Assembly (NCBI GenBank): GCA_973895155.1
Contig: OZ316894.1
Coordinates: forward strand, 17,266,563 to 17,330,562
DNA: 64,000 nucleotides
From: Marsupella aquatica
Lineage: Eukaryota > Plantae > Marchantiophyta
Direction of reading: 5' to 3'
This document shows positions 6,011-64,000 of the stretch, in pieces. The translations under genes were made by a program, and so were the position numbers. Position 1 is the first letter of the stretch; every line of letters starts with the position of its first letter. Below the pieces are notes generated by a model. That model was given only the letters and a program-made list of their open reading frames with translations, had not been told where the DNA came from and did not search any database.

Positions 6011-6382
6011 ATTATGCCCTTTAGATGCTCTATCATAGTGTTGTTGGTTCACCGTTCCTGAGATGATGAAGTACAGTAGACAGACAGACAGACAGACCGA
6101 CCGACAGAGAGAGAGGTAGATAGATAAGCCCCGTCAGGTCCAAATCCAAAGCGAAGGTGCTGACTGGAGGAGGACGATCGAATCGTCTTTCCTCCTCCTC
6201 TGCTTTTCTTTCGTAAAAAAGCACGGGAACCGCACTACAGTAAGTTGCTCTAATCGATCAATCAATCAGTAAAGTATAGAGCTCTGTGTCGCATCCCTCG
6301 TCGACCTGCTTCCTTTCGAAGCTGCGCGCCCCGGAGGCGGTGCGGTGCGGTCGATCGATCGTTTCTTCCTTCCTTCCTCTCC

Positions 6383-37856: not shown

Positions 37857-38975
37857 CCACAACCTATTCAACAGCTCCACACCCAACCCTGTCTATCTAT
37901 CTATCTATTCCATCAATTCCATCAATCAATGCCAAGCTTCGGTCCTCAATCTCAATCTCAATCTCCAATTCATTTTACATGTTTCTTCGTCAAATCAGAG
38001 AGAGAGAGACACACACACACACACACAGATCTACTGAGGACAATTCCGGGTGGGTTACGCAGGATCGCAAAGAAGCTAACACGACCTTCAACGTACTCGG
38101 CACGATCTGGTGCATACGGCGATGTGAGCAAGCCCTGAACTGTGTGTCGCTCACCAGCACCAGCTTCACCCGCTTGGGAGCTCGATCGAGAAACCTTGTT
38201 CCATTCGATTAAGAGTGCAACGAGAAGGAAAACATCTACTGTACGCCTCGTTGGATTTCCTTGGATTTCGTTGTCAGCAAAATGTGCCCTATCTCGCCCA
38301 ATTTGATTTTTCCCCCCTTACAGCATAGGAGAAAAATGGAGAGCCCATCCTGGCCCTTCATGGGAACCTGGTTTTTGCCCTTCCAAAATATGAGAATAAT
38401 AGGAAGCCAATTCTGGCTCTTTATGAAAACCTGATTTTGGGGGCACCATCAGATCCCCAGGACACCCCTCCCATCTCAAATGTCTGCCCAAGCTACCCTA
38501 AGCCCTCCCATCATTTGCCCAAAATGAAAAATTAGACAATAGAAAAATTGAGAAAATATTTAAATTTTGAAAAAATGTGAATGAGTATAAAACCAGAAAT
38601 ATTTGTTTAGTCAGGGAAGAATTGAAAAGAAAACAAACTAATCATTGTTTTCCACCTCTACCCCCAATTTCAGTCATGGTCTGGAGGCTTTACACTAGAC
38701 TTTTGATCACCATTGTGGGATCTCAAACCTCAAAATTTGATGAACTTAACTTAGTAGTTAAGGTTTAGGAAAAAAAAAGTTATGGACTACCATAATCCAT
38801 TACTTGTTGCTGTAAAGATTAGTCCTATGTCACCATGTCATTTTAGATTCATATTATGTGAAAAATTTATGGCCAAAAACCTTCATCTTCAACTTTGAAG
38901 CTTTGAGATGCACTATGATGATCTTACTTATAAGGAGCGAAGGAGAAGCTAGAGTCAGGGTCTAGGCCTCTAGAG

Positions 38976-45858: not shown

Positions 45859-46377
45859 TCATGAAATTTTTTTTTTTCTCGGTCCGTTCTTTATCTTCGC
45901 CAGAGTTCTCTTTTGCCCGCGTAAAACATAGATTTTGTTAAGAGCGGTGGTTTGACGTGAAGCTAGAAAAGTTGTTTGATAAGTAGAAGGACTCAGGGTT
46001 GAAAGTGCGTTCTTTTTGATCACTTGTGATACACTAATCTCTCCCAAAGAAGATACATAATCTTTATTCATTCGTTGCAATTTATTAGTATTTGCGAGTT
46101 GGACCATTCCTTTACACCACTTAGATGCTCCGGATACACTTGAGTACAGATAGTTTGCACTGGCTTGAAAACATTCTTTGAAAACCACATCCTGTTCTAC
46201 ACGGTCATTGCTCTGCTTCGCGCCTACTTTTTCCTGCGATACCAGTCGTTTTCTTAGTTTGATAATTCGACTTATTTTGGGTAATCCATCATTATATAAT
46301 AATACATAAAAAGTCATATAAAACACGCATAACCAAACGAATTGTGTCAAATACGTAAATTGATCTAGTTGAGGCAT
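45859..46377 (-). CDS. atp8: Mitochondrial ATP synthase subunit 8 (NUMT copy), 172 aa
   Basis: MPQLDQFTYLTQFVWLC...LPKISRIIKLR signature of plant atp8/orfB. Confidence 0.92.
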   Translation of the reverse strand: MPQLDQFTYLTQFVWLCVFYMTFYVLLYNDGLPKISRIIKLRKRLVSQEKVGAKQSNDRVEQDVVFKECFQASANYLYSSVSGASKWCKGMVQLANTNKLQRMNKDYVSSLGEISVSQVIKKNALSTLSPSTYQTTFLASRQTTALNKIYVLRGQKRTLAKIKNGPRKKKIS

Positions 46378-46874
46378 TTTTTTCCACTTTTTTTTTTACC
46401 GATTCCAATACTTATTGAATCGCGCTCCGCCCAGCCAAATAAAATATATACTTTATTTGCGCTCTGAGTCGTTCTGGGTGGGGGATAATTATTTTATCAT
46501 CCGAGGCCATGCGCGTAGTCTGGGTCCGAAGGACACGGGGGAATCATGCCTGTATCGGGCCAGAACGAAAAAGCAGAGCTTTTATTCGCTTCGCAAAGGA
46601 CCCGCCCGAAACCTAGTACTCCGCCATGGGCCGGAAATTTTAAAGCCGGCCGGAAACGCAAAGAAAATAATTTTTCAGTGATTAGCTAAAGGGCCGCAGG
46701 CAACCTCCCCTTTTCATTACTGAGGTCCTGAGTATACATGTGGGCATACCCCCCCGCATTACCTGAGGCTTGGGGCGATGAGACATCGCTTGTAGTCGCA
46801 CTACTGGATTATTTGCGTGACATCCCCTCTTCGCATCTAGTTTTTAACCGCGTTAACGCACCAACAAAAACTAA

Positions 46875-47654
46875 TTATTTGCCCCGGCCTTGGTCTTTGA
46901 GTCGAAATACGTTATTTTTGGTGGGTTGTTTAGTAGTTTCACGTTTTTTCTCGGTATGGGTGAGAGGAGGCTTTGGGCCTAAATGCTTGAAGCTCTGTTT
47001 GGTCCTTTTGGTCGTAGGAACTTTCTCGGAAAAAATATTTTTTTTCTTGACGTTCGTGTTCCTCTCCACGTCTCGCCGGTGTTTTAGCTTCGCGCCTAAA
47101 TGCTTTGTTCGTTCCTGATGCGATCTTGGCGTCAAAAAATAATCTATTTTGCCATCACCAATCTCTTTTACCACGATATTACTGATTTCTGGTTTCATGT
47201 TCAAAATGGAGAATATTCTCCATTGACTATAAAATACTTTTCTACTTTTGAGAAGACTCTTGGGGAGAAAAGCTATATACCCTGCGATTGCTACAGCATA
47301 ACCTCCTTTCACTGAATTCAAAATAAATCCTTTGACCAAATTTTGGTCACTTCGCCAAATCTTGGTGAGTTCAATCCAAACTAGTTTTCCTTTACATCTT
47401 ATTTCTAATGGTTTCGGCAGAAGCATCTTTGGTTCACCAAACACTTCTACATCTTCAATTCCAAAATTAAACCTTGCTTGCTTGGTGATTGGCACTTTCT
47501 CCAGTTCATGTTGGAAACAAATTATTGGAGTTTTCAGTCCCGTATCCACCAAGACCTTGTTTTGTTGTAATTGTATCACTGAACATTGTATAGCACTCCC
47601 ACGTAATGGATTAAAACTAGAATTATATTTGGGAAATAATTGACTAAAGCTCAT
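46875..47654 (-). CDS. rps1: Mitochondrial ribosomal protein S1 (NUMT copy)
   Basis: MSFSQLFPKY... with VLVDTGLKTP and KGFILNSVKGGYAVAIAGYIAFLPKS. ATG at 47654. Confidence 0.9.
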   Translation of the reverse strand: MSFSQLFPKYNSSFNPLRGSAIQCSVIQLQQNKVLVDTGLKTPIICFQHELEKVPITKQARFNFGIEDVEVFGEPKMLLPKPLEIRCKGKLVWIELTKIWRSDQNLVKGFILNSVKGGYAVAIAGYIAFLPKSLLKSRKVFYSQWRIFSILNMKPEISNIVVKEIGDGKIDYFLTPRSHQERTKHLGAKLKHRRDVERNTNVKKKNIFSEKVPTTKRTKQSFKHLGPKPPLTHTEKKRETTKQPTKNNVFRLKDQGRGK

Positions 47655-48320
47655 TTTTATTCCTTTTCCTTTTTCAGTACTTCTGTCACCCAATTCGTTT
47701 GCTTATAAGGGCCTTCGGACTAAGCAGTGCCCTCATAATCAGTTTCATGAGGCCTTTAGGGCATAGTAATTAATTGCTAGGGGGAGAACAAAATTATTTA
47801 TTTGTGCTGCGCCGAGCCTTCCCGTATTTCGACTTGGAACCATCCCAGTTGAATAGGCCTGAAGTCGACGAGACTCGTTCAGTCCGGGAACGAAAACGAC
47901 CCAAGCTCTATCATTCTCATTTTAGAGAACCTGAGATAACCGTGCAGCCGTAAGCCGCAGGCCACCCCCATAGGGCATAGAACGAGAGAAAAAAAATATA
48001 TATAAATTTTTATTTGTTTCCGGCCCTTTCCCGGCGTCGGCCCGGCTGGAGACACTCCGGTATCGGCTAAAGCCCGAACCCTATCGGCCCGAGGGCGCGA
48101 TACTATAGATAGAAGTGCTACGCACTTTGTGGGTCCGAAGGGCCGCCGAAGGCCAGACATGGCTTGTAGATTTCCTTCTCCGCCTTTACGAAGGACGGGT
48201 TAAGCCCCGTGAAGCCAAAGAAGTATCCCAAAGAAGTCTCCCTCGGACCCTAAAAAAATTGTTTCTGCTCTTGAACCTCAATTTACCATTTTATGATGAC
48301 ATAGCACTTTATGATGATAT

Positions 48321-48698
48321 TTAAACACGACGTTTTTTAGGGGGTCGGCATCCATTATGTGGCGTTGGGGTTACATCGCGAATTTTGGTAATAATAAGAC
48401 CTCCTGGTTTTAAACCACGTAGCGAAGATTCCTTTCCATAACCCAATCCTTTGATTCTCACTTCAACAAACTTAAATCCAAGTTGAATGGCAGCTCGCGC
48501 GACATTTTCTGCGGTTGCTTGAGCAGCATAATTGGTTGAGCGACGAGATCCCTTAAACCCCACTGAACCCGAGGGGGACCAAGTTTTTGTATTTCCGTCA
48601 TAATCCGTTAAAGTAATAATTGTATTACCAAAAGTTGATTGAATATAAGTAATACAGTGTTTTTTTTGCATATTAGTAATACCGTGCTTTTCCTGCAT
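48321..48698 (-). CDS. rps11: Mitochondrial ribosomal protein S11 (NUMT copy)
   Basis: STFGNTIITLTD, GFKGSRRSTNYAAQ, IRDVTPTPHNGCRPPKKRRV. Confidence 0.95.
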   Translation of the reverse strand: MQEKHGITNMQKKHCITYIQSTFGNTIITLTDYDGNTKTWSPSGSVGFKGSRRSTNYAAQATAENVARAAIQLGFKFVEVRIKGLGYGKESSLRGLKPGGLIITKIRDVTPTPHNGCRPPKKRRV

Positions 48699-48816
48699 GA
48701 TTGTTTATTGAATGTTTTTGGTGTTGCTCGATATCATCGATTTCGTTTTTTTATGATCCATCCAATTCGTTCACCAATTACAGAGATATTTTGTACGAAC
48801 TGGAAAAAAACTTTTC

Positions 48817-49179
48817 TCAACTTCTGATCGAAATGTATCTCAATTTGCGAGAAGTCTTAGCATTAGTATGAGTCCGTTGGCCGCGTAAGGGCAATCCTGC
48901 ATTATGGCGAAACCCGCGATAACAACCAATACTAATTAATCGTTTGATGTCCCTCTGAATGACTCTCTCCAATTCCGAATCGACTAAATAATTTTGACTT
49001 ATTATTTCTATAATTTGGTCAAATTGATATTTAGTTAACTTATTAACCTTAATGTTATCGCTGAGGCCTAATCGATCACAAACTTGAATTGCCTTTTTAG
49101 GCCCAATTCCGAAGATTCGGGTTAAGGCAATTTTCACCTGTTTATTGGAATTCAGATTGGTTCCTAAAATATATGACAT
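48817..49179 (-). CDS. rps13: Mitochondrial ribosomal protein S13 (NUMT copy)
   Basis: IALTRIFGIG, CYRGFRHNAGLPLRGQRTHTNAKT. Confidence 0.95.
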   Translation of the reverse strand: MSYILGTNLNSNKQVKIALTRIFGIGPKKAIQVCDRLGLSDNIKVNKLTKYQFDQIIEIISQNYLVDSELERVIQRDIKRLISIGCYRGFRHNAGLPLRGQRTHTNAKTSRKLRYISIRS

Positions 49180-49182
49180 GAT

Positions 49183-49488
49183 TTATTTTTTTTTCCCTTG
49201 TTTTTTATGTATAATTTCGTTCCGATATTGTATACCCCTCCCTTTATAAACTTCGGGAGGTTTACAACTTTTGACAATGGCAGCAAATTGAGTGACTTTT
49301 TGATGATCCATTCCGGTACAACAAATAAGATTAGGCTTTAAGCAAAAAACGCGAACTGAAGGTGGAACTTGAAGTCGAATCTCATGACTAAATCCTAATT
49401 TCAAATATAAAATAGAGCCTTGTGCGTTAGTACTGGCTTTATATCCAACTCCAATTATTTCCAAAAAACAAAAGAATTTGGCTTCCAT
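49183..49488 (-). CDS. rpl6: Mitochondrial ribosomal protein L6 (NUMT copy)
   Basis: LEIIGVGYKA, LKLGFSH, KPPEVYKGRGIQY. Confidence 0.93.
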   Translation of the reverse strand: MEAKFFCFLEIIGVGYKASTNAQGSILYLKLGFSHEIRLQVPPSVRVFCLKPNLICCTGMDHQKVTQFAAIVKSCKPPEVYKGRGIQYRNEIIHKKQGKKK

Positions 49489-49506
49489 AAACTTTACTTT
49501 ATTTTT

Positions 49507-49965
49507 TTAAAAAACTTGGCAGAGAATCTCACCGCCACCAAAATTGGTTTTTTGTGCTTCACGATCACATATCAAATTTCCCCTTGAAGTGGATAAGATG
49601 GTTATACCAAGTCCTTCCCTTTTTTTTGATAAACGATTTTTTGATGAATAAATCCGAAAACCTGGTTTAGATATTGTTTCCATCTTTTTCATTACACCCA
49701 TTCCAGAAAAATGATACTTCAAGACTATTCTCAAGCTTCCGTCTGCTTCCTGAGAGAATCCGTGGATATAACCCTCATCGTACAGAATTCTGCAAAAATC
49801 CCAACAAAGACGCGAAACGAAAACGCGAGGGGTAATTTTACAAGCGGAGCAGACAAAGCGTTTTTTTCTCTCGCTTATTTTTTTGAAGGAGGAAAAATAA
49901 AGAACACGCTTTTGAGCTTTTTGCGCATTTTTTATACCGGATAAAAGATTACTTAATGTATGCAT
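49507..49965 (-). CDS. rps8: Mitochondrial ribosomal protein S8 (NUMT copy)
   Basis: LSNLLSGIKNAQ, ILYDEGYI, ISKPGFRIY, GITILSTSRG, GGEILCQVF. Confidence 0.93.
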   Translation of the reverse strand: MHTLSNLLSGIKNAQKAQKRVLYFSSFKKISERKKRFVCSACKITPRVFVSRLCWDFCRILYDEGYIHGFSQEADGSLRIVLKYHFSGMGVMKKMETISKPGFRIYSSKNRLSKKREGLGITILSTSRGNLICDREAQKTNFGGGEILCQVF

Positions 49966-50465
49966 AAAAAGAATATTTTTTTTCTATTTTTTCGATTCGA
50001 ACAGCACTTCGCGCCTCGCGGGGCGTTCGATTTATTCCTTATTAAGAGACATTTGATTTATTCCTTATTAAGAGACATATATCTAAATTGGTGGTTTCAA
50101 CCCTCCCTATAGTCCCGTGCCCGAAAAAAGCGTTTTTCGTCAGTCGCGGGCCCTTCGGGCACTCTCGCCTTCTTTCTAAGCCATTTTTAGAAGACTTCGG
50201 GCACTCCTCCCACCTATTAGGTCTCGTGCCTTTGGCGGCCGCAGGGTTCGGAAAAATATTTGTTGTTTTTCGCTACATTCCCAATTTAGCTATTAGATTC
50301 TACCTGGAGAAAGTTCAGCGTGTAGTAACCAAATGTTCGAATCATAAGCGAGGGAAAAAACGTATTTCATTTTATGAGCGCCTCGTATACTTGGCAGGTT
50401 GGGAGGCAGTGGAGGAAGACCTATATATAGGTACTCCTCGAAGAGCTAACCTTTTCTTTTATTGG

Positions 50466-50651
50466 CTACCAACACGATTTGTTTATGCCTATCAAAGAAC
50501 CTTTAGAAGCTAATTCACGAAAAACTATACGAGAAATGCGAAATAACTTATATACGGAACGAGGGCGCCCTGTGAAAATACACCGGTTTCTTACTCGTGT
50601 TTTGGAACTATTTCTTGGCAACTTAGACAACTTAGAAAAATATTCATAACG
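50466..50651 (-). CDS. rps14: rps14 exon 2 (NUMT copy)
   Basis: RYEYFSKLSKLPRNSSKTRVRNRCIFTGRPRSVYKLFRISRIVFRELA...KSCW*. Confidence 0.9.
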   Translation of the reverse strand, partial: RYEYFSKLSKLPRNSSKTRVRNRCIFTGRPRSVYKLFRISRIVFRELASKGSLIGINKSCW

Positions 50652-51546
50652 GTTACAGTAGACGTGGAATTTCCTCTGACGCCCCTGATTCAAAACCGTA
50701 CGTGATAGTCTCCTATCATACGGCTCCTTGCACCCAGATTGATAAATTATTACGACTTAAAGAGACGTTGTGTCTCTCATCCTCGATTTTGAAGCATATA
50801 TGTTGACTGCTCTTTCATCCCTTGGGATGCATGGACACTTTAGCATATCCCGATCGTAACAACCGGGCAAAAAAAAGTTTTTTTTAGCTTTTTGCCCTAT
50901 CCCAATCCTACACACCATGAAGTTAGCCCGCCTGAGTTCAAGCTCAGAGGTGCGCAGGATTACACAGTTCCGAGATTCCATTCATCCTTTTGGATTGGGC
51001 CGTAAGGCTCCCGCTCTACGCCGGAGGCGCACTGAAAGAACGGGAAAGGGCAGAAAATACCTTTCCCTGGGCCTCTGTCTGATATTCCGGACGCGGCGGG
51101 GGGTCAGTAGGAAGCAATACCACCCCGCTTTCCTATTACGACGCTTCAGATGCTACGGTTCAGTAATTAGCCTTCGTAGGTAGAATAACCACCCTGTAGT
51201 ATTCACCCGGACAATACCCAACAAAGGGTATTTGTCACGCCCTTGCTAGAGATTATTCGTTCCCCACTTCCTAAGGGGCGAAACTCGCTTATCCCCGCGG
51301 GGGAGCGAAGACTGCGGAAAAGGCTTGCTTTAAAATTTCCGGGTTCTTCATCCCTTTTCTACCCAGCTTCACACCTTTGGATGCCACTCCAAACGCATGT
51401 GGGTACGCTGTTACCCTGTTCTCAAGGGAGAAGGACTTTCACCTTCATGGAAACTCAGTTCACTCGCTCCGCCATCCGGGTGCGGATGAATGCGGAATAG
51501 AGCGCACAGGCGTGACTCAACGTCTTGACCTGTGAACAGGTCGCAC
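50652..51546 (-). other. Group II intron in rps14 (position 114), 895 nt, no intact maturase ORF
   Basis: 5' GTGCGA and 3' AAC boundaries. Domain V GAGCCGTATGATAGGAGACTATCACGTACGGTTT at ~50692-50727. Removal gives a 99-aa Rps14. Confidence 0.9.
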
Positions 51547-51660
51547 TATCTTATTAGGAAGATTTCTATCTTGACAAATGGCTTTGTAATACATTCGTTT
51601 CAATTCATATTTAGCCACAAGCAATCTACGTTTGTGATCCCGCATAATTTTATTTGACAT
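51547..51660 (-). CDS. rps14: rps14 exon 1 (114 nt; NUMT copy)
   Basis: MSNKIMRDHKRRLLVAKYELKRMYYKAICQDRNLPNKI, followed by the GTGCG intron start. Confidence 0.9.
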
Positions 51661-51664
51661 ATGA

Positions 51665-52225
51665 CTAAACCTCTTTTTGCAAAAAGCCACTCCACAAAAT
51701 TACAGTCTCATCTTGTGTGTTAGCTGAAGTGACAATAGTTACATCAAACCCTCGAATATGCTCGAAAATCTCGAAATGATCCTGTATTTCGGGAAATAAT
51801 CGTAACAACGACGTTGCCATTGATAATTGAATGGAGTTTTTACGTATTTTGACCGGATAATCGTAGAAGGATATTATTGTAACAAGTTTTTCCAAAAAAT
51901 TATACATGATATGCCCTCGTAGAGTGCTTCGTGCTAGGTGAGTGACATATCCTGTGTCTCTCTTGGACTCCTGATTTACTACGAATTTATTGAATCGAAA
52001 CGACTTTCCTGTCGAACCCCTACTTCGTGTCTGTATGAATTTTTGACCACAAACAATTTCCATGGCTAATTTAACATTCTTTATGAAACTTGAGGGTGCC
52101 TTTGGAACTACTATTGTTTTACACAATCTGGGAACTTCCATTATATTTTCGTAATTAATTTTTAGCAAGAAATCTGGACGTATTACCTGATCGTAATGAA
52201 ACTCGAGTCTATTTGGGGAGAACAT
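51665..52225 (-). CDS. rpl5: Mitochondrial ribosomal protein L5 (NUMT copy)
   Basis: [50 protein letters not shown]. Confidence 0.94.
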
Positions 52226-54309
52226 AATTCGATTTGGCCTTTTTTTATTGAAATGGAAGCATCAAGGGCATCGAAAACCAATGTACCAGCCCGTTTATCG
52301 GGAAGGGCGAGCAGTCATCAGCTCACCCCGATGGATATAGAGACAGTAATACTTGATGGCATGGTGCGAAGTTAAGACCACGCACCCTAGAGATTCGACC
52401 TACTTCATCGCAGGCACTTTTGACAGCACCCATAATGACCACCTTCTCGATCCTTTCCTGAAGACTGCGCGTAAACGACGGCTCTTGGCGGGAATGAGTC
52501 CGAATCCTTTGTAAGTCTTCTGGCGTTCCCTGAAAGTCCGGCGATAACATTTTAAAGATATTTTTGGCGTTGTTATCCCAGTCATTAAGTCAGTAACAAT
52601 ATTGATTGTGCAACGTGCGACTAGCGGAATAAGCAGCTATGCCGGTTTCCCAACCATGGAAAAGTGCCAAAGCCCACCCGTTTGCGCGGCCAATCCGGGC
52701 TAAAGTCACGTTGTAGCCGGAATGACCGGTAAGCGCGGTACGAAAGATAGCAAGCACCACGCGCCTCTATAAGCGCTTCAATCGACAAGGGCTTCAATCT
52801 ACAAGCCCGAACACGCTTCCCGCGCACTCCGTGCCGATGGGTCCGAAGGTGAGCAATGCTTGCCAATAATAAGCGACTACTTATAGTAAAAGGTAATATT
52901 CCTTTTCGATAGTAACACCGGATTAGCAAAATGGGGTTACTATTGACGGTTCATTAGGAGAAAACAAGTTGTCCAAAGAGTTTTTCATTTAAAATATATC
53001 ATCTTTTTCTCCATTTTTCTTTCTTCCGATGAAAAAATATACACATATTTATTTGCGATGGGTCACGGATGATTAGCTCAGATTAGCTCAGAAGGATCTG
53101 CCTGCAAAATGTATTTATTTTTTGCCGTCGGGTAACGGATGCTTAGAGGGAGCGGGAGATCTTTGAATAAGGTCTCCCACTGTGAGAGATTGGGAATAAG
53201 TAACCTTCCGCAACGATTAGAGCGGGATAATACGTATAGAACTACGCCGAGCTGTACATATAACAATACGAGTATCAAGATCTTAGTATACTTTGAGTAC
53301 GGGAGGTACCGATCGAAAAGATACAAGAGCAAACGTTCTTAGTTTCGGGGGTTATTTCGGGCGTTGAACGCCGGCTCTTATAATCTCCTCGACCCAATTT
53401 GTGGGGTTAGCAAAATAAATCCACTAGTAAGTAAGGTGCAAAAAAAGACAGTGATCTTCAATCAAAATAGGAAGGAAGGGATCGATTTCGAGGGAGCTGG
53501 GCTCGCTGGAGGGAGTAGGTGTCATCTTATTTTTCCAATGATTCGCGGCGGCTTCTAGCCCTCGTGTTGGGGGCCCCTCCAAATCCTTGGGTTAGGCCGG
53601 CAGGATGGTTGTCCCCAAATACTTGGTCTCCTAGGGTTCAAGGGCTACCTTCCGTTCTTAGAGTTGTGCGAAGAACCGCTTCATCAAGTCATTCTGTTTC
53701 GTATTCATACATGGCCGGAGTAGCTTCGGCCTCGGCAGCTCTTGCTTTCGTCTCATTACCAGTTGCAATAAATTTTGCTCGCTCAGTGCCCCCCCCCCCG
53801 ATTTGTCGGATTTCTCCTCAATTACCAAGGGTTTCCCGGTCGGCGGCACCGCTTTACCCGAGATATGAGCGACCCCCGTGAATATACCACTACTCCTACT
53901 ATCGGGGTCGATGTCGAACCTTGCAATATCGAATTGTATTAATCTGTACGAGAAAGGGACCCGGACTTTGTTTCGTCGGACACCACAAGACCAAGATACT
54001 GTCCGACAAGGGCGACTGTCTGACATAATCCGAGCCGACACGAGGGTGGTAACACTAAAACGCAGTAATGAAATAAGTAAAGGCGGAAAGCGCCATTGAG
54101 CATATACATAGGGATGATCGGAACATAAAAGAAATCTTGATTGTAGGTGCGTGGGACTCGACCAGGTGGAGAGGTGTATAGCACTCGACCAGAAAGAGAG
54201 CGTGCGGAATGCCACTTTTGTCTCGAGCGCGGACTTCTCCAATAGAGCTAACTAACGTAACGAAGGTTACAAGCTTATTTTGACTTTCCGCCATATTTTT
54301 TTCTCTTTC

Positions 54310-54717
54310 TCACGACCACTTAAAAAACTTTATCGACAACCCCAGTTTATGCGCGGCCAATGTAGCAGCTTGTTGAGCATTTGACAGACTGACGCAATCC
54401 ATTTCAAATAAGATTTGTCCCTTCAACACACGAGCAATCCAACCTTTAGTATTTCCCTTGCCCTTTCCCATTCGCACTTCTGCCGGTTTACTGGTAATAG
54501 GAATATCTGCGAAAACTCTTACCCATATTTTAGAATTTCTTCGAAATTTTCTGCTTATAGCACGACGCGCTGCTTCGATCGCTTGATACGAAATACGGCC
54601 AGCTTCACAACTTTTAATGCCGTATTTTCCAAAACAAAGTTCTGTACCGTCTGCTTTGCAACCTTTACATTTGCCTTTTCGATATTTACGAAATTTTGTA
54701 CGTTTTGGATATAGCAC
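54310..54717 (-). CDS. rpl16: Mitochondrial ribosomal protein L16 (GTG start, overlaps the rps3 end; NUMT copy)
   Basis: YPKRTKFRKY, GRISYQAIEAARRA, TSKPAEVRMGKGKG. The GTG start inside rps3 is the known plant mitochondrial arrangement. Confidence 0.94.
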   Translation of the reverse strand: MLYPKRTKFRKYRKGKCKGCKADGTELCFGKYGIKSCEAGRISYQAIEAARRAISRKFRRNSKIWVRVFADIPITSKPAEVRMGKGKGNTKGWIARVLKGQILFEMDCVSLSNAQQAATLAAHKLGLSIKFFKWS

Positions 54718-55978
54718 AACTTGTCCCTTTTTTTTGTGTTAGAAAATACGAAACCCACACTTTGACACCTAAGATTCCATAAGGGGTAGATGCTTGTGTT
54801 TTCGCATAATCGATTTGATCGGAAAAAACATGTAAAGATGTTTCGCCGTATTTTTTGTATTCAGTTTTAGCTATTTCCGCGCCATTCAATCGACCTGAAC
54901 AACCAATACGGATCCCCTTCACATATGGGCATTTTTTAATTCGTTTAAATATAGATCTACATATTTGTCGAAATGATTTTTTTTGTTCTAGTTCCCAAGA
55001 TATTTCTTGAGCAATTAGAGAGGCACTTCGATAAACAGAAGCTATTTTGACTGGCTGAATTAAGGTATTAGTTTTTGTTTGATTAGCAAATAAAGATTGC
55101 ATTTTTTTCAAATAATAATAACGACTGGAAAGAGATGTAGCTTTCCTAAATCGGGCATACCTTAAGAATATGATAGCATCGAAATACAATGTGGACCTGG
55201 GTTGACGAATTGACTCCCCGCTTTGTGTTCCTTGCTTGGCCAGCGGAATGGCTTCCCCAATCGTGGATGTTCTAGCTGGGCCTTGTGCCACGGGACTTCT
55301 GTTAACCATAGGATCGAATTGAATTTGGTTCTTTAGATTGAAGAAATATTGCATTACGAAATAATCCAAGGAAGCACGCCCGGTAAAACCAAAGAAGTCT
55401 TCTTCGGACCCAAAAATATCTCTTTTTTTTTCAGCACGCACGGCTACCGGGATGTAAGGCGCGAAGCGAGAGAACGCATAGCGTTCTTCTGAGGCTCTTC
55501 CGTCATCATTTTCGTCTTTCGGCCAGATACTTTGAAAAGTAGAGTGTATGTCGGCCATCCAATCGCTGACTCGAAGTAATTGGTCAATCTTATGTATTGA
55601 TGGCGATCGACCATGGTATTCATAGCGGCGTTTTCCGGGCCAAATCCCGACTTCATTTCTCTGTTTTACTGTATCGTCGTTAATACGCCCGATCGACTTG
55701 ACAGATGGTAGTGCCCCAAGGCCTTGATGTCTTGATTGGCTAAGTCGATCCAGAAAAGATAGATGAATAAATGTCCTTTTAGGAAAATGATGGATAATAC
55801 ACCTACCGAGACGAAAGCCAAACGTGTTTCCCGTAGGTGGACGTATTGAACCAAAATAATCTCTAAAATTTAAATCTTGATACAACAATTTTCCGTAGTA
55901 GTAATCACTAAACCAACTGGAATCTGAACTACGATTCAGATTGAGTCTGACTGAAATCGGATTTACTTTTTGTGCCAT
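54686..55978 (-). CDS. rps3: Mitochondrial ribosomal protein S3 (NUMT copy), 430 aa
   Basis: MAQKVNPISVRLNLNRSSDSSWFSDYYY, GIRIGCSGRLNGAEIA, STPYGILGVKVWVSY. Confidence 0.95.
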   Translation of the reverse strand: MAQKVNPISVRLNLNRSSDSSWFSDYYYGKLLYQDLNFRDYFGSIRPPTGNTFGFRLGRCIIHHFPKRTFIHLSFLDRLSQSRHQGLGALPSVKSIGRINDDTVKQRNEVGIWPGKRRYEYHGRSPSIHKIDQLLRVSDWMADIHSTFQSIWPKDENDDGRASEERYAFSRFAPYIPVAVRAEKKRDIFGSEEDFFGFTGRASLDYFVMQYFFNLKNQIQFDPMVNRSPVAQGPARTSTIGEAIPLAKQGTQSGESIRQPRSTLYFDAIIFLRYARFRKATSLSSRYYYLKKMQSLFANQTKTNTLIQPVKIASVYRSASLIAQEISWELEQKKSFRQICRSIFKRIKKCPYVKGIRIGCSGRLNGAEIAKTEYKKYGETSLHVFSDQIDYAKTQASTPYGILGVKVWVSYFLTQKKGTSCAISKTYKIS

Positions 55979-55984
55979 AATTTA

Positions 55985-56266
55985 CTATCGTACCTTTTTG
56001 ATCGGTTTGATCTTGGTTTTCGAGGGCAAAGCTCTCTTACCCAAGGAGGAGGTTTTCCGTGTAGAAGCAAACTCTCCAAATTTATGACCAACCATTTCTT
56101 CAGTAATCTTCAAACCAACAAAACCTTTTCCGTTATAAATTTGTGCATAGCAACCAACAAATTGAGGCAAAATACAAGATCTACGTGACCAAATTCTCCA
56201 CCTAATCTTTTTTTGCTTGAACAAGCAAGTATCCACAAAAGGACCTTTCCATATAGAGCGTGTCAT
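55985..56266 (-). CDS. rps19: Mitochondrial ribosomal protein S19 (NUMT copy)
   Basis: [31 protein letters not shown]. Confidence 0.95.
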
Positions 56267-56269
56267 AAA

Positions 56270-56737
56270 CTAATTTCTGCGTTTTCTCACTACTGTTTTG
56301 AATCCACCTTTGGTAGGCTTGCCCCAAGGTGATACCGAAGGTCTACCTCCTTTAGTGCGTCCTTCACCGCCTCCATGAGGATGATCAACTGGATTCATAG
56401 CCACACCCCGAACGATGGGGCGTCTGCCTAACCACCGGCTTTGTCCCGCTTTGTCAAGCTTATGTTTACCATGATTAAGATTGGAAACTATACCAATAGT
56501 AGCTCGGCATCGGGAATCTATTAGTTTGTCAACACCCGAAGGTAACCGCACAATACATTGCGGTGTATTCTCAACCTTCTTAATTATTTGAGCAAAGGTT
56601 CCCGCGGCTCGAGTCAACTTTGCGCCTTGACCTGGGTTCCTTTCAATGTTATGTACCCACGTGCCTATAGGTATTTTGGCTAATGGTATGCAATTTCCGA
56701 CCATTTGATAATATGAATCAAGTATGTAATTTAAAAA
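56270..56737 (-). pseudogene. rpl2: 3' fragment of mitochondrial rpl2, truncated at the NUMT edge
   Basis: [55 protein letters not shown]. The N-terminal part is absent and there is an in-frame TAA at 56764-56762. Confidence 0.9.
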
Positions 56738-56796
56738 GCTAGAGGGCCAACCCCATAGGAATTATCGTTTGCTTGAGCTATCGTTGCCACCCCCCT

Positions 56797-57980
56797 TGTA
56801 ATTTGAATAAAAGGGAGCTTTGGGGGGATTAAAATTCCCCATTAGGGAGCCCTGCGAGTGACCAGGTGGCGCCCGAGAAACCTAGCCCTTGCATAGGGAG
56901 GCGTGCCGCGCGAGCGAGGGTGCCGCAAGCTAGGGGCTCCCGTGAGCCGGGCCCAAAAGATGCAGTGAGGAGGGGGGGTATTAAACCCTCCCGCGAGGAG
57001 GGAGCAGGACCGGGTGAGCCCTGCATAGGGCCGCGAGCCCACCAGCCGCAGCCGCAAGTAGACGTAGCGGCGAGGGGGAGAAAGCGAGAGGCGAGCCAGG
57101 GCGCATGGCTTGTGCGCAACCGGGAGGTACCGGGCGGCTTGCCGGAGCCGGGAGGAGCCCGCGAGTAAGAGCCCAGGTGAGCCGAGCCGGGGCGCGAGGC
57201 GAGGGGCGCAGCTGGGTCGCAGCCGGGAGGAGAAGATCGCGGAGTGGGGAGGGGGGCAATTAAGTTCCCTTGGGAAGGGTCCGCATGAGGGGCTGTGAGT
57301 AGGGGGAATTAAATTTCCCCGGCCTTGGAGGACTGGAGGCCACCGCGAGTATGCCCCGGAAGGGAGGCGCGAGGCGCTCCCGCGAGTAGTGGGGGGAGAA
57401 TTAAATCCCCCATTAAATCGCAGCCGGGACGCTTCGGAGGGCAGGTGAGAGGGGGGCAGGTACGCGAGCGGCAGAAGGGGGGAGAAAATACTCCCCGATA
57501 CACGGGTGAGTCAATACCCAGGAGAGGGCAGCGGACGGCACCTGGTGCTTAGGGGTATACTTAAGGGGGGCCTGCGCCCTTAGGAAAGCCACCACTTCTT
57601 GCTTTCCCCTTAACTTTTTTCTTGCTTCCCTTGAGATGCCGAAAGCTTCCCTCAAAACTGCTTCTTTGTAAACAGTACCCTGGTTCTTGGTTCTCCAATT
57701 TGTTTTCCCCTTTCTCTCTAGCTCGGCATTGAATTGGGGGACTCACTGTCTCCGAGCATTAACGGTGGCTGCAGTGAATTATGTCTAGGAAATTGAGATT
57801 GGGTCATTGATTGATCGGGATACGGGGGCCGTTTCGGGCCAGGGAATTGACATTGCTACGGGTGATGGGATTTGGTGATTGAGGATCGGATTTCTGGATG
57901 CATGGATGCTGGATCAACCAGAGTTTAGTGAGGCACGCATTCGGAGGTACAAGGCTGCTTACCGTGACTACGTTGAGACA
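56797..57980 (+). mobile_element. GC/CpG-rich LTR-like block with repeated G-run/AT-core/C-run mini-palindromes
   Basis: TG...CA ends are possible. A TATA-like TATACTTAAG (~57556) is followed by a pyrimidine-rich tract. Six GGGG(G)-AT core-CCC(C) motifs. No TSD found. Confidence 0.4.
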
Positions 57981-57982
57981 TT

Positions 57983-58554
57983 TGTCGTGCGCATACATAT
58001 CGCTACACAACATACATCGCTTGTCACATACATCCAGACATAGTCACACTGCCACATCACAAATACAAGAGAATGGAATACAAGTGGAACTCATGTCCAC
58101 ACATGTCCAAAACCCACAATAATCTCCATACAATCGGCACAACGATCTCGGTCAACAATACCCCATCGATCCCGCACCGATCCGATCACACACGTATGTC
58201 AAGCCAACGCACCTTGCACTACTCAAGGAATCCACGTTACACAAGCGGAGCTCACAGCCACCATAGCCACACTCAAGCTCCTCTCTCTCCAAGGCTCAAC
58301 ATTGAAAGATGACCTTTCAATGCCTCACAAGTGAGAAGTACCCTCTCACACAAACCTGACAGAACCTTATCGGCTCCAATAGCACTCATACCAAACGTAC
58401 ATACTCTAATAGCACGATATACTACTACACTACTCAGAATGGTGTGATAGCTGTCGTGCGCATACATATCGCTACACAACATACATCGCTTGTCACATAC
58501 ATCCAGACATAGTCACACTGCCACATCACAAATACAAGAGAATGGAATACAAGT
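57983..58554 (-). repeat. Putative LTR (57983-58429, TGTCGT...ACTACA) plus a second copy of its terminal 103 bp (58452-58554)
   Basis: Direct repeat TGTCGTGCGCATACATATCGCTACAC...GAATGGAATACAAGT at 57983-58085 and 58452-58554. The second copy abuts the end of the gypsy RNase H region. Confidence 0.55.
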
Positions 58555-60119
58555 CCACAGATCCACTATATGCTGGCACCCAACAAAGAAAGGCAGATGC
58601 ATGCCATCCTGGCACCATCTCCTTATCTGACTCATCATGCCATCTGGCTCCAGTCTCATCCTGCTGACTGGTACATGGATTGCGGCTTAATCCATCTGCA
58701 TCCAAGTTCACTTTTCCAGGCCTATGCACCACCTGGAAATCATACTCCTGTAACAACAATGCCCATCGTGCAAGCTTCCCTGTAAGCTTGTCAGACTCCA
58801 TTAACCACTTAAGAGGCTGATGATCAGTGATCAAGGTGAAGGGATTACCAAACAAGTAGCAACGAAAGTGTGCAACAGCCCACACTGCTGCCAAACACTC
58901 TCCCTCATAAGAGCTATTCTTAGCCTCTGCTGAATTGTTTGATCTACTGGCATAAGCCACAACAAACTCATTCCCCTCATCATCCTTCTGAGTCAGCACT
59001 GCTCCAAGTCCTACTCCACTCCAATCAGTGTGTAGCTGAAATGGTCTGCCTGAAATGGGTCTTCTCAAAATAGGGGATGATGCCAACCTTTGCTTCAACT
59101 CCTGAAAGGCATGCTCCTGGTCATCACCCCAAATCCATTCCTGATCCAACTTAGTGAGTATGGTCAAAGGTTTAGCAAGCTGGCTAAATCCTTTAACATA
59201 CCTCCTGTAGTAGCTCGCCAATCCCAAGAATGCACGAACTCTACTCACATCAGTAGGACAAGGAATCTGTGTAATGGCCTCCACTTTAGTCTGCTGTACA
59301 CCCAATCCCCCTGGGTATATGGTGTGGCCCCCAATACTCAATCTGGTCTTGGAAGAACTTACACTTGCTAGGATGGAGCTTCAACCCATGTGCTCTCAAT
59401 CTCTCCAACACAGTCTGCAAGTGCTGCTGATGTTCTTCCACAGTAAAAGAATAGACCAAAATATCATCAATATAACATTTGACAAAATCCAAACCTGCAA
59501 GGATTCGATCCATGACTCTCTGGAACTCAGCTGGTGCATTCTTCAACCCAAATGGTAAGAATAACCATTGATACAAACGATCTTTGCCATAAGAATCAAT
59601 CCCCCAGAATGCTGTCTTGGACCTGTCAGCATGCCTAATTGGAAGCTGATGGTATCATGCCCTCAGATCCAATGAACTGAAAACCTTTGCATGCCCCACA
59701 GCATCAAAGATCTCCTCAGGTGTGGGCATGGCATATCGATCAGATTTTGTCTGGCGATTAATAGGTCTGTAATCACCACACATGCGCCTATCTGTGTAAT
59801 TGCCATGCACATCCTTCTTGGCTGGCATCACTGTGGCAGATGCATACTCCCCATATGAAATCTCCACCAATCCAGCCTCCACCAAATCTTGAGTTCTGCT
59901 TTGAATCAGAGCTCTCTCCATGTCACTATAACGGTATGGTCTACGAAAGATTGGCGCATCACTAGCCAATTCAATCTGAATACCGGGGCCCTTCAATGTC
60001 CCCAAATCCTTCATGCTGAATGCAAAACAATTCCAATAACTCTTCAGGAATCGATGCATGCGACGTCTCTCCTCCCCTGTTAACTTAGGGCCAAGCTGTG
60101 GTTCCCAACTCTCCACCAA
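58555..60119 (-). pseudogene. Ty3/gypsy reverse transcriptase and RNase H
   Basis: RMCGDYRPIN, FSSLDLRA*YHQLPI, KTAFWG, LPFGLKNAPAEFQR, YIDDILVYS, FLGLASYYRRYV, FQLHTDWSGVGLGAVL, YEGECLAAVWAV, TDHQPL, ADGLSR. Confidence 0.93.
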
Positions 60120-60349
60120 ATCCCTAATATCTCTTTGTAGGGTAGAAGAGATAGCCGATGATTGCTATTTAGCAGTAGATTGAGCAGTCCCTTCCTGCTC
60201 AACAATCTGTCCAGCCGCCAATCCTGTCATAGGTCCATGGACTGTCTGCTTGCCCCCAGCTGTGGTCAATACTGTCTCAGTGGACCGCAAGCTCACCAAG
60301 GGACAATCAGTAATTCCGGCATAGCGCATCCGCAACTGTTCAGCTACTC

Positions 60350-61301
60350 CCAAGCTGATAATCCAAGTCAAACAATTCAAATCCATTGCTTGACCAAGAA
60401 CCTGGCGCCGCAAACCCTCTGACACAGAGGCAACTGCAGTGGTGCCAGTCAAAAATCCCATAGCACGCTCTCTCTCATCAGCAGTAGGCTCCACTAACTG
60501 CTGGAGAGCTGTGTCCCATACAAGTCCAGGGCCACCTGCTCTGAATGCATATGAAGCAGAGTGGCTTACAAGAGTGGGTAATGCACAACGTGGGCACCCA
60601 ACTGCATTGACCATTGCCAATGGAGGTCTATCAGGTTGGGTCACACCCTGTGCACGACGCCTTGGATCCAAAATATCATCCACCACTAAGGCTGGTGAGC
60701 GTGGAATGCTGTCAAATGCGCGCTTCAGCACCTCACATGGGATCAAATTAGTCCACCATAAGCGTGGACGATGTGCACAAGAACCCACATGTGCAGCATC
60801 CAATAACACAGCAGGTCCAATCCAAGACCTCACTTGGTGAACACTGGCAACAATCCGACTACGATCATCACCTAACAATGGTACATTCTCCAAAATGTAT
60901 GCTGGAGACTGTGTCTGATGTAGCTGGAGGTGACGCAGCACCCGTAACATCTCCCAAAACAATGCAGAGCGTGGATCATGAAGTCCATGCCCAATACCAG
61001 CTCTAGATTGGCCCTGACATGGCCAACCAGCAATCACCAAATCAATGGGGCCAACACGATGTAGATGATCCGCCCCCAACAATGAAATATCAGCAGGTAG
61101 TGCATGCTGATAACCACGAACAGCATCCACTGGCAGCAACTGTGGATATCTATCCACCAACATAGCCACATGTCACAATGAGACCCTCCGTGTTGTCTCA
61201 TCTGTCTCCACATACAAATAACGACGCACAGGAATTCTTGCCTGAAGAACAGCAGCCAATCCAGTGCTAATCCCACCAAAAAGATCCAACAAACAAATAT
61301 C
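60350..61301 (-). pseudogene. DNMT3-like C5-cytosine DNA methyltransferase domain inside pol (one internal TGA)
   Basis: Motif I LLDLFGGISTG; II YVETD; III ADI; IV GPIDLVIAGWPCQ (catalytic Cys codon 61019-61017); V LFWEMLRVL; VI YILENV; VIII LDAAHVGSCAHRPRLWWTNL; IX ERERAMGF; X RRQVLGQAMD. Canonical non-permuted order. Confidence 0.9.
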
Positions 61302-61699
61302 CTCCGGTGGATACTGCCAAGCAATAGGAGTGGTATCCAATGGTGAAAGAGTCACAGGTCCATCTGCAAGAGACTGCTCTGCTCCTGACTGTGGTGTAAA
61401 AGCATGACGCCATGCATCATGTACCAATCGTGCTGCTGCCTGTGGCAAGGCTTGTGCAGTGCCCCACACTGGTGGCACAACACTGCCAACAGGTAATCCT
61501 CGCATGATGTGCTCCTCATGAGACTCCTCCAATGGTGGAACATCGGCTGCATGCGCATTACCCTCAATCAAATCATCAGGTCCAGCAATTACACCACTGA
61601 ATGCTGCCAAAGACAATGGTGTGGATTTAGGGCCTCCCATAGGTCCACTAAATCTCACTGGCAATTTGCTCAATCGAGCATCTCCTGACTGCCAATCAG

Positions 61700-62060
61700 G
61701 TCTATATGACACTGATTCCTCCCAAAAATCAAGAATAAATCCCATGGGGTAGAGCACTGTACATCCCACCAACACATCATATGACTCTGCCTTAGTCAGA
61801 ATAGCTCGCGCCTGTATCTGTGAGCTATCTGTGGTATGACCTTCCTGAATCCTCAAATCAAGTGGTCTTCTGGTGATATGTTGTGTAGGTGTAGGTCCCC
61901 CCAATGAAGTCTGAATGGGAAAGGGACAATCCTCCAAATCCTCTGGACGCAATCCCAATCCACGTATGGCAGACTTCCCCAACATCAAGGGCTGAGCACC
62001 AGTATCCAGTAACACTTTCTCTGGCTGGTATACTGCTCCAGAAGGCCCAACTAATCGGAA
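61700..62060 (-). pseudogene. Retroviral-type aspartic protease domain
   Basis: VLLDTGAQPLM catalytic DTG motif and the C-terminal YDVLVG motif. Confidence 0.8.
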
Positions 62061-62162
62061 GATACCACTACGATTATCCAATGACACAACACTAGGTTTA
62101 AACCTAGTCCTCTCAAATGTAGGGCGTGCTGGTAAATCCACCAACCTCGCTGCTGCTGCATG

Positions 62163-64000
62163 TCATGTCTCACTAGTAGCAGTAGGTGGCATGGTCTTCA
62201 TTGCATCAACACTGCAAGTTGCTTCTGCATGGGAAGCAACCACTGGAGTGTCCTCACAGAGTGTAGCTGCCAATCTGAACACTTCTACAGGACCAACTCC
62301 CAAGTTCAGCATGTCTGTCGCTGAAAATAATGAGGTGCGTACTATGGCAGTAGCCGCCCCCAACAAGGTACCTGTCATCCCTGCTGCATCACTACCTGAT
62401 TCTGCCAACTTACCCACATCAGGGTTTGTCCGAACCGGGTTCATAGAGGCAGTCTGAACTGTCTCTGACAATGTAAAAGACTGAGGAAGCTTTGTCTGCC
62501 GACGTGCATCCCCCCTTTGTGGATCTAACTCCACTACTGCTCCTCGGGGCTCAAGAGCATTGGCTGCCCCACGTGTCAAAGCTGCTGATGCATCAATATG
62601 TGCAGTGTCACACATGAATCCCATGGTGGCAAGGTCTCCATTAGCTCCATAAGATGTGGAAGGACCATGGGATGTGGAAGGTCCATAGGATGTAGATGCC
62701 CCATCACCAGAATTAGGTATCACTTGGGAACTAGCCATGGCAGCTAGTTGTTGCTCCAATTGAGCAATCTTAGCATCCTTTGGATCTATGGTTACAGCAG
62801 GGGCAGCGTCACCTCCCTGTCTCCCTGCATGTGGCATGCCACGACCACGCCCACCACCTCTACCTCCTCCTCCTCTTCCCTGATCATGTGTACGGGATCC
62901 TCCTCTCCGTAACTCAGGGTGGAGTGAGAAACACCTATCCTTGGTGTGTCCAGGAGCTCCACAATGATCACACTGTCGCTGATCAGGCGCTGATGCTCCC
63001 CCTGATCCTCTATGATCTGGACAATATCTTTGTGCATGATCCCCACCACAGGTCCAACATCCTGACTGCTGTCCAGCATAAGAGGGCACAGGTCTCTGGC
63101 TGGTAGACTCTCGTGCAGTAGGCTTCTCCCTCTGGCTCTTCCATGCAGTAGGCTGTGGTGTGGATGTAGATGCAGCCTTTGGTGCTTCCTTGGCAAATCC
63201 GAAAGTCACCACCTTCTCATTCACCATATTGAGCTCAATGCGCTCAGAAAGGGTGAAAACAACTGCTAATGTGGGATCTGCATCCCTAAGCAGAGTGACA
63301 TCTCTCACTCTGCGTCGCAATTCTCTGTCCAGAATTGCATACCAAAACTGGACTGCCTGAGCCTCTGTCACTCCCTTGGTGACAGTGATCAATCTGCGCA
63401 TACGTGTGTATGCCTCACGTAGACTCTCTCCAGTCTTGCGTTGGAACTCCTGAAGACCCTTCAACTTATCAGTTCTCACACCCTGATAGTTCTGCTTCAG
63501 TACCTCAAAGAATTCCACCACAGGATTAAATGCTGGCGCAACTCCAGTTCCTGTCACAATCACACCGGCAGGAGTAGTGGTGGATGCTGCTGGAGTGTTG
63601 CTGGTGGATGGTGTGCCACTCTGGCTAGTGCTGCTAGAAGAAGCAGCAGCTGTGGCAATTGGTTGGGCAGCCGCACTAGTGCCATAGGTGATGGACACGT
63701 AATTAGGCGACCAATGCTGCCTTCATGCCTCAATCTCAACCAAATGAGCCTTCCGAAACTCATGGTAGTCATCCATGGGTGGCCCCTCCAAATGCTGGAA
63801 TAATCCCTTCCATGCCATGAAAGGGGTAAACAACGTGACATTACGCAATGTCTGCATATCGCACCACGTATCAAACTCCTGGATGAAGTCATCCAGATCA
63901 ATTGTGCCAACTGCACCAGAGTATCGTCGTGGGCCCTTTGTAGCCCCGTACATCTCGTCCATATCCCACAACAAAGGTGCAACCACCTGATGATGAGGAG
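62163..64000 (-). pseudogene. gag region of the gypsy element (capsid-like region plus two CCHC zinc knuckles)
   Basis: LQEFQRKTGESLREAYTRM (retrotransposon gag motif), CWTCGGDHAQRYC, CDHCGAPGHTKDRC and an RGG-rich tract. One internal TGA at 63723-63725. Confidence 0.85.

Follow-up and report, generated by a model that had tools for sequence, protein, structure and literature searches.

Several retrotransposons are now known to encode a DNA methyltransferase of their own. KnitGypsy-Dnmt3 of the alga Klebsormidium nitens is described as combining gypsy domain content with DIRS-like repeats in the order A-coding-B-A-B, as holding its DNMT in one open reading frame (ORF) with reverse transcriptase (RT) and RNase H (RH), and as having a Ka/Ks below 0.2 (PMC5890265). 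According to the same source, the Dnmt3 domains of SymbioDIRS-Dnmt3, from the dinoflagellate Symbiodinium, methylate CG de novo in yeast. Later papers place Gypsy-DNMT3 in 'streptophytes', citing de Mendoza et al. 2018 (PMC12344493; bioRxiv 10.64898/2026.05.21.726589). Here, we describe a Ty3/gypsy-type element of this kind in a 64,000-nucleotide stretch of the leafy liverwort Marsupella aquatica (contig OZ316894.1, positions 17,266,563 to 17,330,562; hereafter the window). We lean towards reading it as a copy of a bryophyte gypsy-type element whose ORF1 encodes Gag, protease (PR) and DNMT and closes at a leaky stop codon, so that the enzyme would be made at the level of Gag and would likely methylate the element's own new complementary DNA (cDNA) within the particle.

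All parts of the element lie on the minus strand. As the preliminary description of the locus had held, gag, protease, methyltransferase and RT share a single frame (63998-59286), and the profile scan that it proposed matched gag, protease, PF00145, RVT_1 and RT_RNaseH, the first two weakly (Retrotrans_gag, E 0.052; Asp_protease_2, E 0.0067). The gag region (62931-63998, with a Met at 63962) crosses the window edge on its 5' side; it carries two CCHC-type knuckles (63059-63021 and 62972-62931), and its N-terminal part can be aligned by eye to the Marchantia polymorpha protein Mp4g09160. It is followed by the aspartic protease (61638-62117; LLDTGA at 62012-61995), a DNMT3-like C5 cytosine methyltransferase (60351-61310; PF00145, E 2.6e-11), a conserved in-frame TAG with CAA TCA behind it (60159-60167) that ends ORF1, the RT (59301-60158; YIDD at 59474-59463; RVT_1, E 1.6e-25) and the connection with RNase H (58556-59344; RT_RNaseH, E 5e-36). 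A frameshift near the 3' end of the RT, at about 59301-59344, puts RNase H into a second frame, which ends at a deletion. This deletion, at 58555, took out the integrase (IN), the PHD finger and a G-tract; a domain scan of the window translations found no integrase left, and nine contigs of one public run (X2) diverge from the window sequence at the deletion point (58552). With the frameshift, the deletion and four premature TGA stops, at 63723-25 in gag, at 62163-62165 just upstream of the protease, at 61173-75 within the methyltransferase and at 59655-59657 within the RT, the window copy is dead. The 5' end of the element lies beyond 64000; its left boundary, first put at 58555, has to be moved to 57983, since terminal repeats continue to that position.

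The methyltransferase (MTase) presents motifs I, II, IV, V, VI, VIII, IX and X in canonical, unpermuted order, with motif I at 61292-61260, IV (PC) at 61049-61017, VI (ENV) at 60899-60882, VIII at 60773-60744, IX at 60476-60453 and X at 60410-60384. The element's own strings are LLDLFGGISTG, GPIDLVIAGWPC, ILENV, CAHRPRLWWTNL, ERERAMGF and RRQVLG; most of those quoted earlier (GPFDLVIGGSPC, FENV, AAHRARYFWGNL, EMERVFGF and RQRLLG) belong to DNMT3A and stand on its side of the alignment. The assignment made with them, DNMT3-type and not DRM, nevertheless stands on motif order, profile ranking and fold. A profile of 30 relatives searched against the PDB ranked DNMT3A best (E 1e-20), followed by DRM2 (4e-9), DNMT2 (6e-7) and HhaI (8e-7), and no chain named DNMT1 or CMT was among its 53 matches. 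The predicted structure of the domain (mean pLDDT 77.6, pTM 0.81, with the internal stop modelled as X) gave 32 listed fold matches, all of them DNMT3A, 3B or 3C, the best being DNMT3A at E 4.8e-17. Plant DRM was rejected because its circular permutation is absent and motifs I to X are canonical. As our trees hold no host DNMT3 or K. nitens sequence, the term 'DNMT3-like' rests on profile and fold. In the ESM Atlas, the best cluster is PF00145, eukaryotic and mostly Streptophyta (a share of 0.96), and it is tied with two viral clusters and hence non-discriminating. A scan of IMG/VR returned six phage C5-MTases and nothing else; all are weak matches (E 2e-6 or worse) that align poorly, and they served as an outgroup.

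Central to our reading is the stop codon between DNMT and RT. The TAG at 60165-67 is the sole TAG in the window frame, and a stop followed by CAR-YY is found at 43 of 52 DNMT-RT junctions. These junctions come from 51 metagenome loci and the window, drawn from 59 sequences with a DNMT end and an RT; seven loci with junction insertions, deletions or a truncated RT were left out (L021, L027, L051, L062, L065, L069 and L079), and 21 further loci of the 79 collected have no DNMT end or RT and are hence uncounted. Eight junctions show the full stop-CAR-YYA, 35 read CAA CCC, three have two consecutive stops and six, the L070 group, carry no signal. As background, 10 of 861 other in-domain stops precede CAR-YY, and 0 of 861 precede CAR-YYA. 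Many of the loci are near-copies, so that the fair count is six lineages (45-76% DNMT identity). All six representatives have TAG, and the next six bases are conserved in three to six of them per position, most fitting CAR-YYA; across the same six lineages, no conservation was seen in the 30 bases upstream. Eight single-sequence folds, run without shuffled controls, made no shared RNA structure 3' of the stop evident.

On either side of the stop, the frames keep one phase and stay open through linkers of 207-420 nt. In the relative L044, two open frames of 1369 and 1047 codons, in the same phase, are parted by TAG CAG TTA only. At the protein level, 32 of the 42 long proteins selected end 289-399 aa past the PC motif, without an RT; five M. 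polymorpha proteins all end 309 aa past it and retain intact motifs I, IV and VI, and ORF1 ends 289 aa past it in P0121 and P0298 and 288 aa past it in the window. UAG-CAR-YYA is described as the readthrough signal of tobacco mosaic virus (TMV), giving about 10-fold more short than long product (PMC2754532, PMC2194720); the window matches this type I site exactly, with the downstream frame in phase. In SIRE1, Tca2, RIRE2 and MuLV, as described in these papers, an in-frame stop lies at gag/pol or pol/env, whereas here it lies behind protease and methyltransferase. Conservation of stop-CAR-YY at 43 of 52 junctions means that the window TAG is not a product of decay, and since this stop parts MTase from RT, the MTase would fall into the abundant first product. 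The preliminary description, which made the MTase a Pol domain at RT level, is at odds with such a stop between the two. Judged from the sequence, RT, RH, IN and PHD are likely made by readthrough of the stop behind Gag-PR-DNMT.

The element is also no one-off capture, and the expectation of a multi-copy family is confirmed by proteins, metagenome loci, clustered sequences and sequencing runs alike. Of 3205 candidate proteins of comparable length, 266 matched the MTase, as did 57 of 6697 longer candidates. The hosts named among the hits are Marchantia polymorpha, M. paleacea, Riccia sorocarpa, Calypogeia fissa, Sphagnum troendelagicum, S. fallax and Mesostigma viride; the Mesostigma sequence P0172 is a PR-DNMT relative, and no sequence bearing the name K. 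nitens came up in the protein searches. Among 422 stretches from a metagenome scan, 273 were confirmed and the 79 loci were kept, and these loci give the family's domain order as gag-PR-DNMT-RT-RH-INT-PHD, the second frame of L044 alone matching RVT_1, RT_RNaseH, Integrase_H2C2, rve and PHD. A profile search over 1.84 billion representatives yielded 502 clusters at E < 1e-30, and for 103 of the best 150 representatives the protein with the DNMT also contains a retroelement domain. Between 584 and 18,617 contigs map to the stretch in each of four public runs, most of them differing from it, although the best of these runs may come from the species or sample of the window itself, and summed depth is not copy number. 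For three of the four premature TGA codons, the contig depth is almost entirely of another letter (among 40 of 875 difference rows listed); the junction TAG and the stop at 61173 lie outside those 40 rows.

The closest relatives of the window copy are P0121 and P0298; P0121 is 86% identical to it and groups with it, and in the DNMT tree the two sit beside Calypogeia, Sphagnum and Marchantia sequences (support 78). For the stop-bearing lineages, the DNMT tree (FastTree, 60 rows, 319 columns) and the RT-RH tree (63 rows, 485 columns) branch alike, with clade support of 95 and 100; the DNMT has been carried vertically together with the RT in these lineages. The dN/dS check proposed earlier counts against neutral evolution of the MTase: by the NG86 method, under which many pairs are near saturation, its dN/dS is 0.11-0.19 between lineages (eight pairs with computable dS) and 0.12 at a dS of 0.26 for L044 and L045, which shows purifying selection. 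Elsewhere in the element, the between-lineage values are 0.10-0.24 for the protease, similar to DNMT, and 0.04-0.05 for the RT, against which DNMT is looser. The five M. polymorpha proteins (Mp4g09160, MpVg00370, MpVg00540, Mp5g06330 and Mp5g06860) are 1278-1281 aa long and 95.5-97.8% identical, and on their sequences they qualify as young open-frame members of the family.

In a second, larger architecture, RT-RH-DNMT-INT-PHD, a DNMT of this kind stands behind RNase H and ahead of the integrase. P0169, P0174 and P0175 show it, as do 65 of the best 150 representatives, and it makes up a separate clade in the RT-RH tree (FastTree support 93, midpoint root). The DNMT domain has moved, or was captured twice, inside this PHD-bearing gypsy group. 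The family member P0023, deposited under a bacterial metagenome-assembled genome name (Candidatus Obscuribacterales), clusters with L045 in the DNMT tree; its bin was probably contaminated by eukaryotic sequence.

The ends of the element are split direct repeats. In the window, repeat B1 (58452-58554; 103 nt, ending in CGACA) is followed by a 2-nt spacer GC (58450-58451), repeat A2 (58086-58449; 364 nt, starting TATCA where relatives have TGTCA) and repeat B2 (57983-58085; again ending in CGACA), which is the 3' terminus. B1 and B2 are identical (103/103), which suggests a young insertion, though the repeat is too short for dating. The AATG after B2 is the predicted 4-bp target-site duplication (TSD), and A1, the partner of A2, is predicted beyond 64000; pairs of A1 and A2 are seen in L043, L068 and L002. 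The full layout, A1-ORFs-G-tract-B1-GC-A2-B2, is present in L043 and L068 over 9.1-9.2 kb, and B-xx-A-B in the window, L011, L070 and L071. Five loci with both ends start with TGTCA and end with (C/T)GACA or CAACA; their 4-bp TSD is exact in four and agrees in three of four bases in the fifth. No TGG-type tRNA primer-binding site directly follows A1 in any of six loci read by eye, and ARAGORN found no tRNA genes in the window. From these repeats and ends, B1-GC-A2 is a stored copy of the two joined ends with a 2-nt spacer. Paired long terminal repeats (LTRs), as had been expected at first, are rejected in favour of this A-ORFs-B-A-B arrangement. Troyka LTR retrotransposons, considered because of the three-repeat end, were rejected too, as the family has TG..CA ends and a 4-bp TSD, versus the CG..CG ends, 3-bp TSD and exclusively animal hosts described for Troyka (PMC12440569).

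Some further features of the ends vary between loci. The internal junction is palindromic (GACA GC TGTC; longer in L043) at L043 10343-10358, L041 8235 and L070 9031; the spacer can be GC, GT (L044) or AC (L011), and a G-tract precedes B1 in most loci that contain the region. Nine loci have a single B and no A2-B2 (L015, L029, L032, L035, L036, L038, L050, L052 and L063), and in three of these both ends and a TSD are present; recombination between B1 and B2, assembly collapse or an integrase cut at the internal junction could account for them.

How might such an element work? Ribosomes would mostly end at the TAG and yield Gag-PR-DNMT, and occasional readthrough would yield the longer product with RT, RNase H, integrase and PHD finger. 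It is probable that the DNMT would be released by the protease and packaged in the particle, and the chances seem evenly balanced that it would methylate CG in the cDNA before or at integration; a new copy would then be delivered already marked like the repeat DNA of the host. Replication would rebuild both ends from the internal B-GC-A junction, as has been modelled for DIRS-type elements (PMC7192593), and a DDE integrase would cut at CA and TG. The most extended version of these ideas we hold to be doubtful: an old and recently active bryophyte gypsy lineage with a readthrough-loaded DNMT3 at Gag stoichiometry, methylation of cDNA before integration, tRNA-free integration from the palindromic junction, and M. 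polymorpha copies acting as an unrecognised source of de novo methylation.

In favour of cDNA methylation are the near-invariant catalytic residues, the CG activity of the related SymbioDIRS-Dnmt3 domains and the observed-to-expected CpG ratio (CpG o/e), which is 0.31 in the window element, versus 0.72-0.90 for a pair of genes in the window and 0.51 for its piece of a long interspersed element (LINE). Several observations weigh against our reading. The CpG depletion is equally explicable by host methylation, and the open-frame relatives L044 and L041 are less depleted (0.55 and 0.70). The domain of KnitGypsy-Dnmt3 gave no methylation in yeast, a result that its authors call inconclusive (PMC5890265). 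Within families, dN/dS is 0.36-0.87, which we read as decay after insertion, and the missing host DNMT3 and K. nitens sequences limit the trees. As for the stop, 35 of the 43 signal-bearing junctions have CAA CCC and then ATG in place of CAR-YYA, and these form one moss-like family that includes repeat assemblies of the same insertions; 12 of the 43 have TAA; and with the L070 group (six loci) lacking the signal and P0309 and P0310 being single open polyproteins, the stop is dispensable in some relatives. Enzyme at the level of Gag also exceeds the need of one 9-kb cDNA, so that a role outside the particle fits too.

Such a role, in which the MTase would act mainly on chromosomal DNA, damping its own or rival elements or adding to the host's de novo methylation, appears unlikely to us. 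It would suit a stop that puts the DNMT into the abundant product, the several young open-frame ORF1 copies annotated in M. polymorpha, and the description of host DNMT3 as the de novo enzyme in Physcomitrium (PMC10952607). However, no targeting domain is fused to the DNMT, the PHD finger being on the integrase end; K. nitens has such elements and yet an ordinary plant-like methylome, as described in PMC5890265; and purifying selection along element lineages argues for a benefit in cis. That the domain instead persists for DNA binding or as a structural part, for example to hold the CG-containing terminal repeats or the junction, with methyl transfer minor, strikes us as very improbable. The inactivity of the algal relative in yeast would agree with it, as would an EC in place of PC, seen in 7 of the 48 domains aligned and also in Mesostigma, but the catalytic Cys (47/48), the ENV Glu (47/48) and the SAM-binding FxG are near-invariant. 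The downstream frame, for its part, could be reached by reinitiation or by splicing, the TAG doubling as a YAG acceptor, and not by readthrough. We give this little credence. An ATG at +7 throughout the CAA CCC family and the invariance of TAG across the six lineage representatives would favour it; against reinitiation, there is no such ATG in the window, L003, L041, L044, L045 and L058, and against splicing, there is no pyrimidine tract upstream (43-60% Y), and the junctions with TAA offer no acceptor. Both are opposed by conservation 3' of the stop, as in readthrough signals, and by frames that stay in phase and open over linkers of such variable length.

Compared by description with KnitGypsy-Dnmt3, the window element and its relatives share an unpermuted, intronless Dnmt3-related domain in a gypsy polyprotein, the A-coding-B-A-B repeats and purifying selection on the DNMT. 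They differ in that the hosts are land plants (liverworts and peat mosses) and not an alga, and in that the window clade has a conserved stop between DNMT and RT, although the L070 group, P0309 and P0310 share the single ORF. Since the stop parts the two domains, we place the element beside Gypsy-DNMT3, as a variant that operates in the same way, and not within it as a member. SymbioDIRS-Dnmt3 agrees in repeat layout, and its Dnmt3 is active on CG, but it has a tyrosine recombinase in place of the DDE integrase. EpiLTRs or DAM-LTRs are likewise DNMT-carrying retrotransposons, but their DNMTs are described as sister to DNMT4, and in Cymbomonas as lying at the 3' end of pol with DAM and a chromodomain (bioRxiv 10.64898/2026.05.21.726589), whereas the bryophyte family has a DDE integrase, a PHD finger and a 4-bp TSD. 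PAT and Ngaro share the A1-ORFs-B1-A2-B2 layout with its internal copy of joined ends, but are described with a tyrosine recombinase and, in PAT, an adenine-type methylase (PMC7192593), as opposed to the rve integrase, TG..CA termini and TSDs found here; neither frame of L044 matched a tyrosine recombinase family. With Ty3/gypsy elements (Metaviridae), the family has in common the order PR-RT-RH-IN with a DDE integrase, TG..CA termini and a 4-bp TSD, but it lacks two complete LTRs and, in the six loci read, the tRNA primer-binding site. The novelty claimed earlier therefore holds in part: the Gypsy-DNMT3 kind is already published from K. nitens, while no land-plant family was found in print. 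A literature search that left out subscription journals and Repbase found nothing on land-plant members, on the five Marchantia gene identifiers or on the readthrough stop. It is the range in land plants, the readthrough arrangement and the presence of young copies in a model liverwort that bring the question of why such elements keep a DNMT within direct experimental reach.

The surroundings of the element agree with the host first proposed, a land plant and probably a liverwort. The mitochondrial gene rps3 next to the element shares 97% identity with a cluster labelled Calypogeia suecica, 95% with Ptilidium and Odontoschisma and 93% with Marchantia, but no more than 66% with any moss, which points to a leafy liverwort. 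This rps3 belongs to a block of mitochondrial genes (45860-56760, minus strand) with atp8/ymf19, rps8, rpl5, rpl16, rps3 and rpl2, identified by Pfam or search, and an rps1-like ORF at 46875-47702 recognised by eye. The block lies between nuclear-type genes and the element, its frames are open and its CpG o/e of 1.1 is undepleted; it probably represents liverwort mitochondrial DNA that entered the nuclear genome recently, or else a join made during assembly. A GC-rich stretch at 56830-57980, between rpl2 and the 3' end of the element, may be part of a mitochondrial intron, in which case the element would have inserted into it or next to it. Farther away lie an intronless Na/Ca exchanger-like gene with EF hands (6254-8335, plus strand), an F-box/LRR gene (36450-37892, minus) and a broken non-LTR (LINE-like) RT with zf-RVT (42135-44364, minus).

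Why a retrotransposon should keep the very enzyme that usually silences it has been a question since 2018, and the known hosts, dinoflagellates and Klebsormidium, are experimentally awkward. With young open-frame members annotated as 'hypothetical proteins' in Marchantia polymorpha, the question becomes testable there. The conserved stop indicates that selection placed the enzyme with the abundant structural product and not with RT and integrase, and the split repeats and TSDs show a DDE integrase paired with a DIRS-like end structure. Studies of bryophyte methylomes may need to include these extra DNMT3-like genes.

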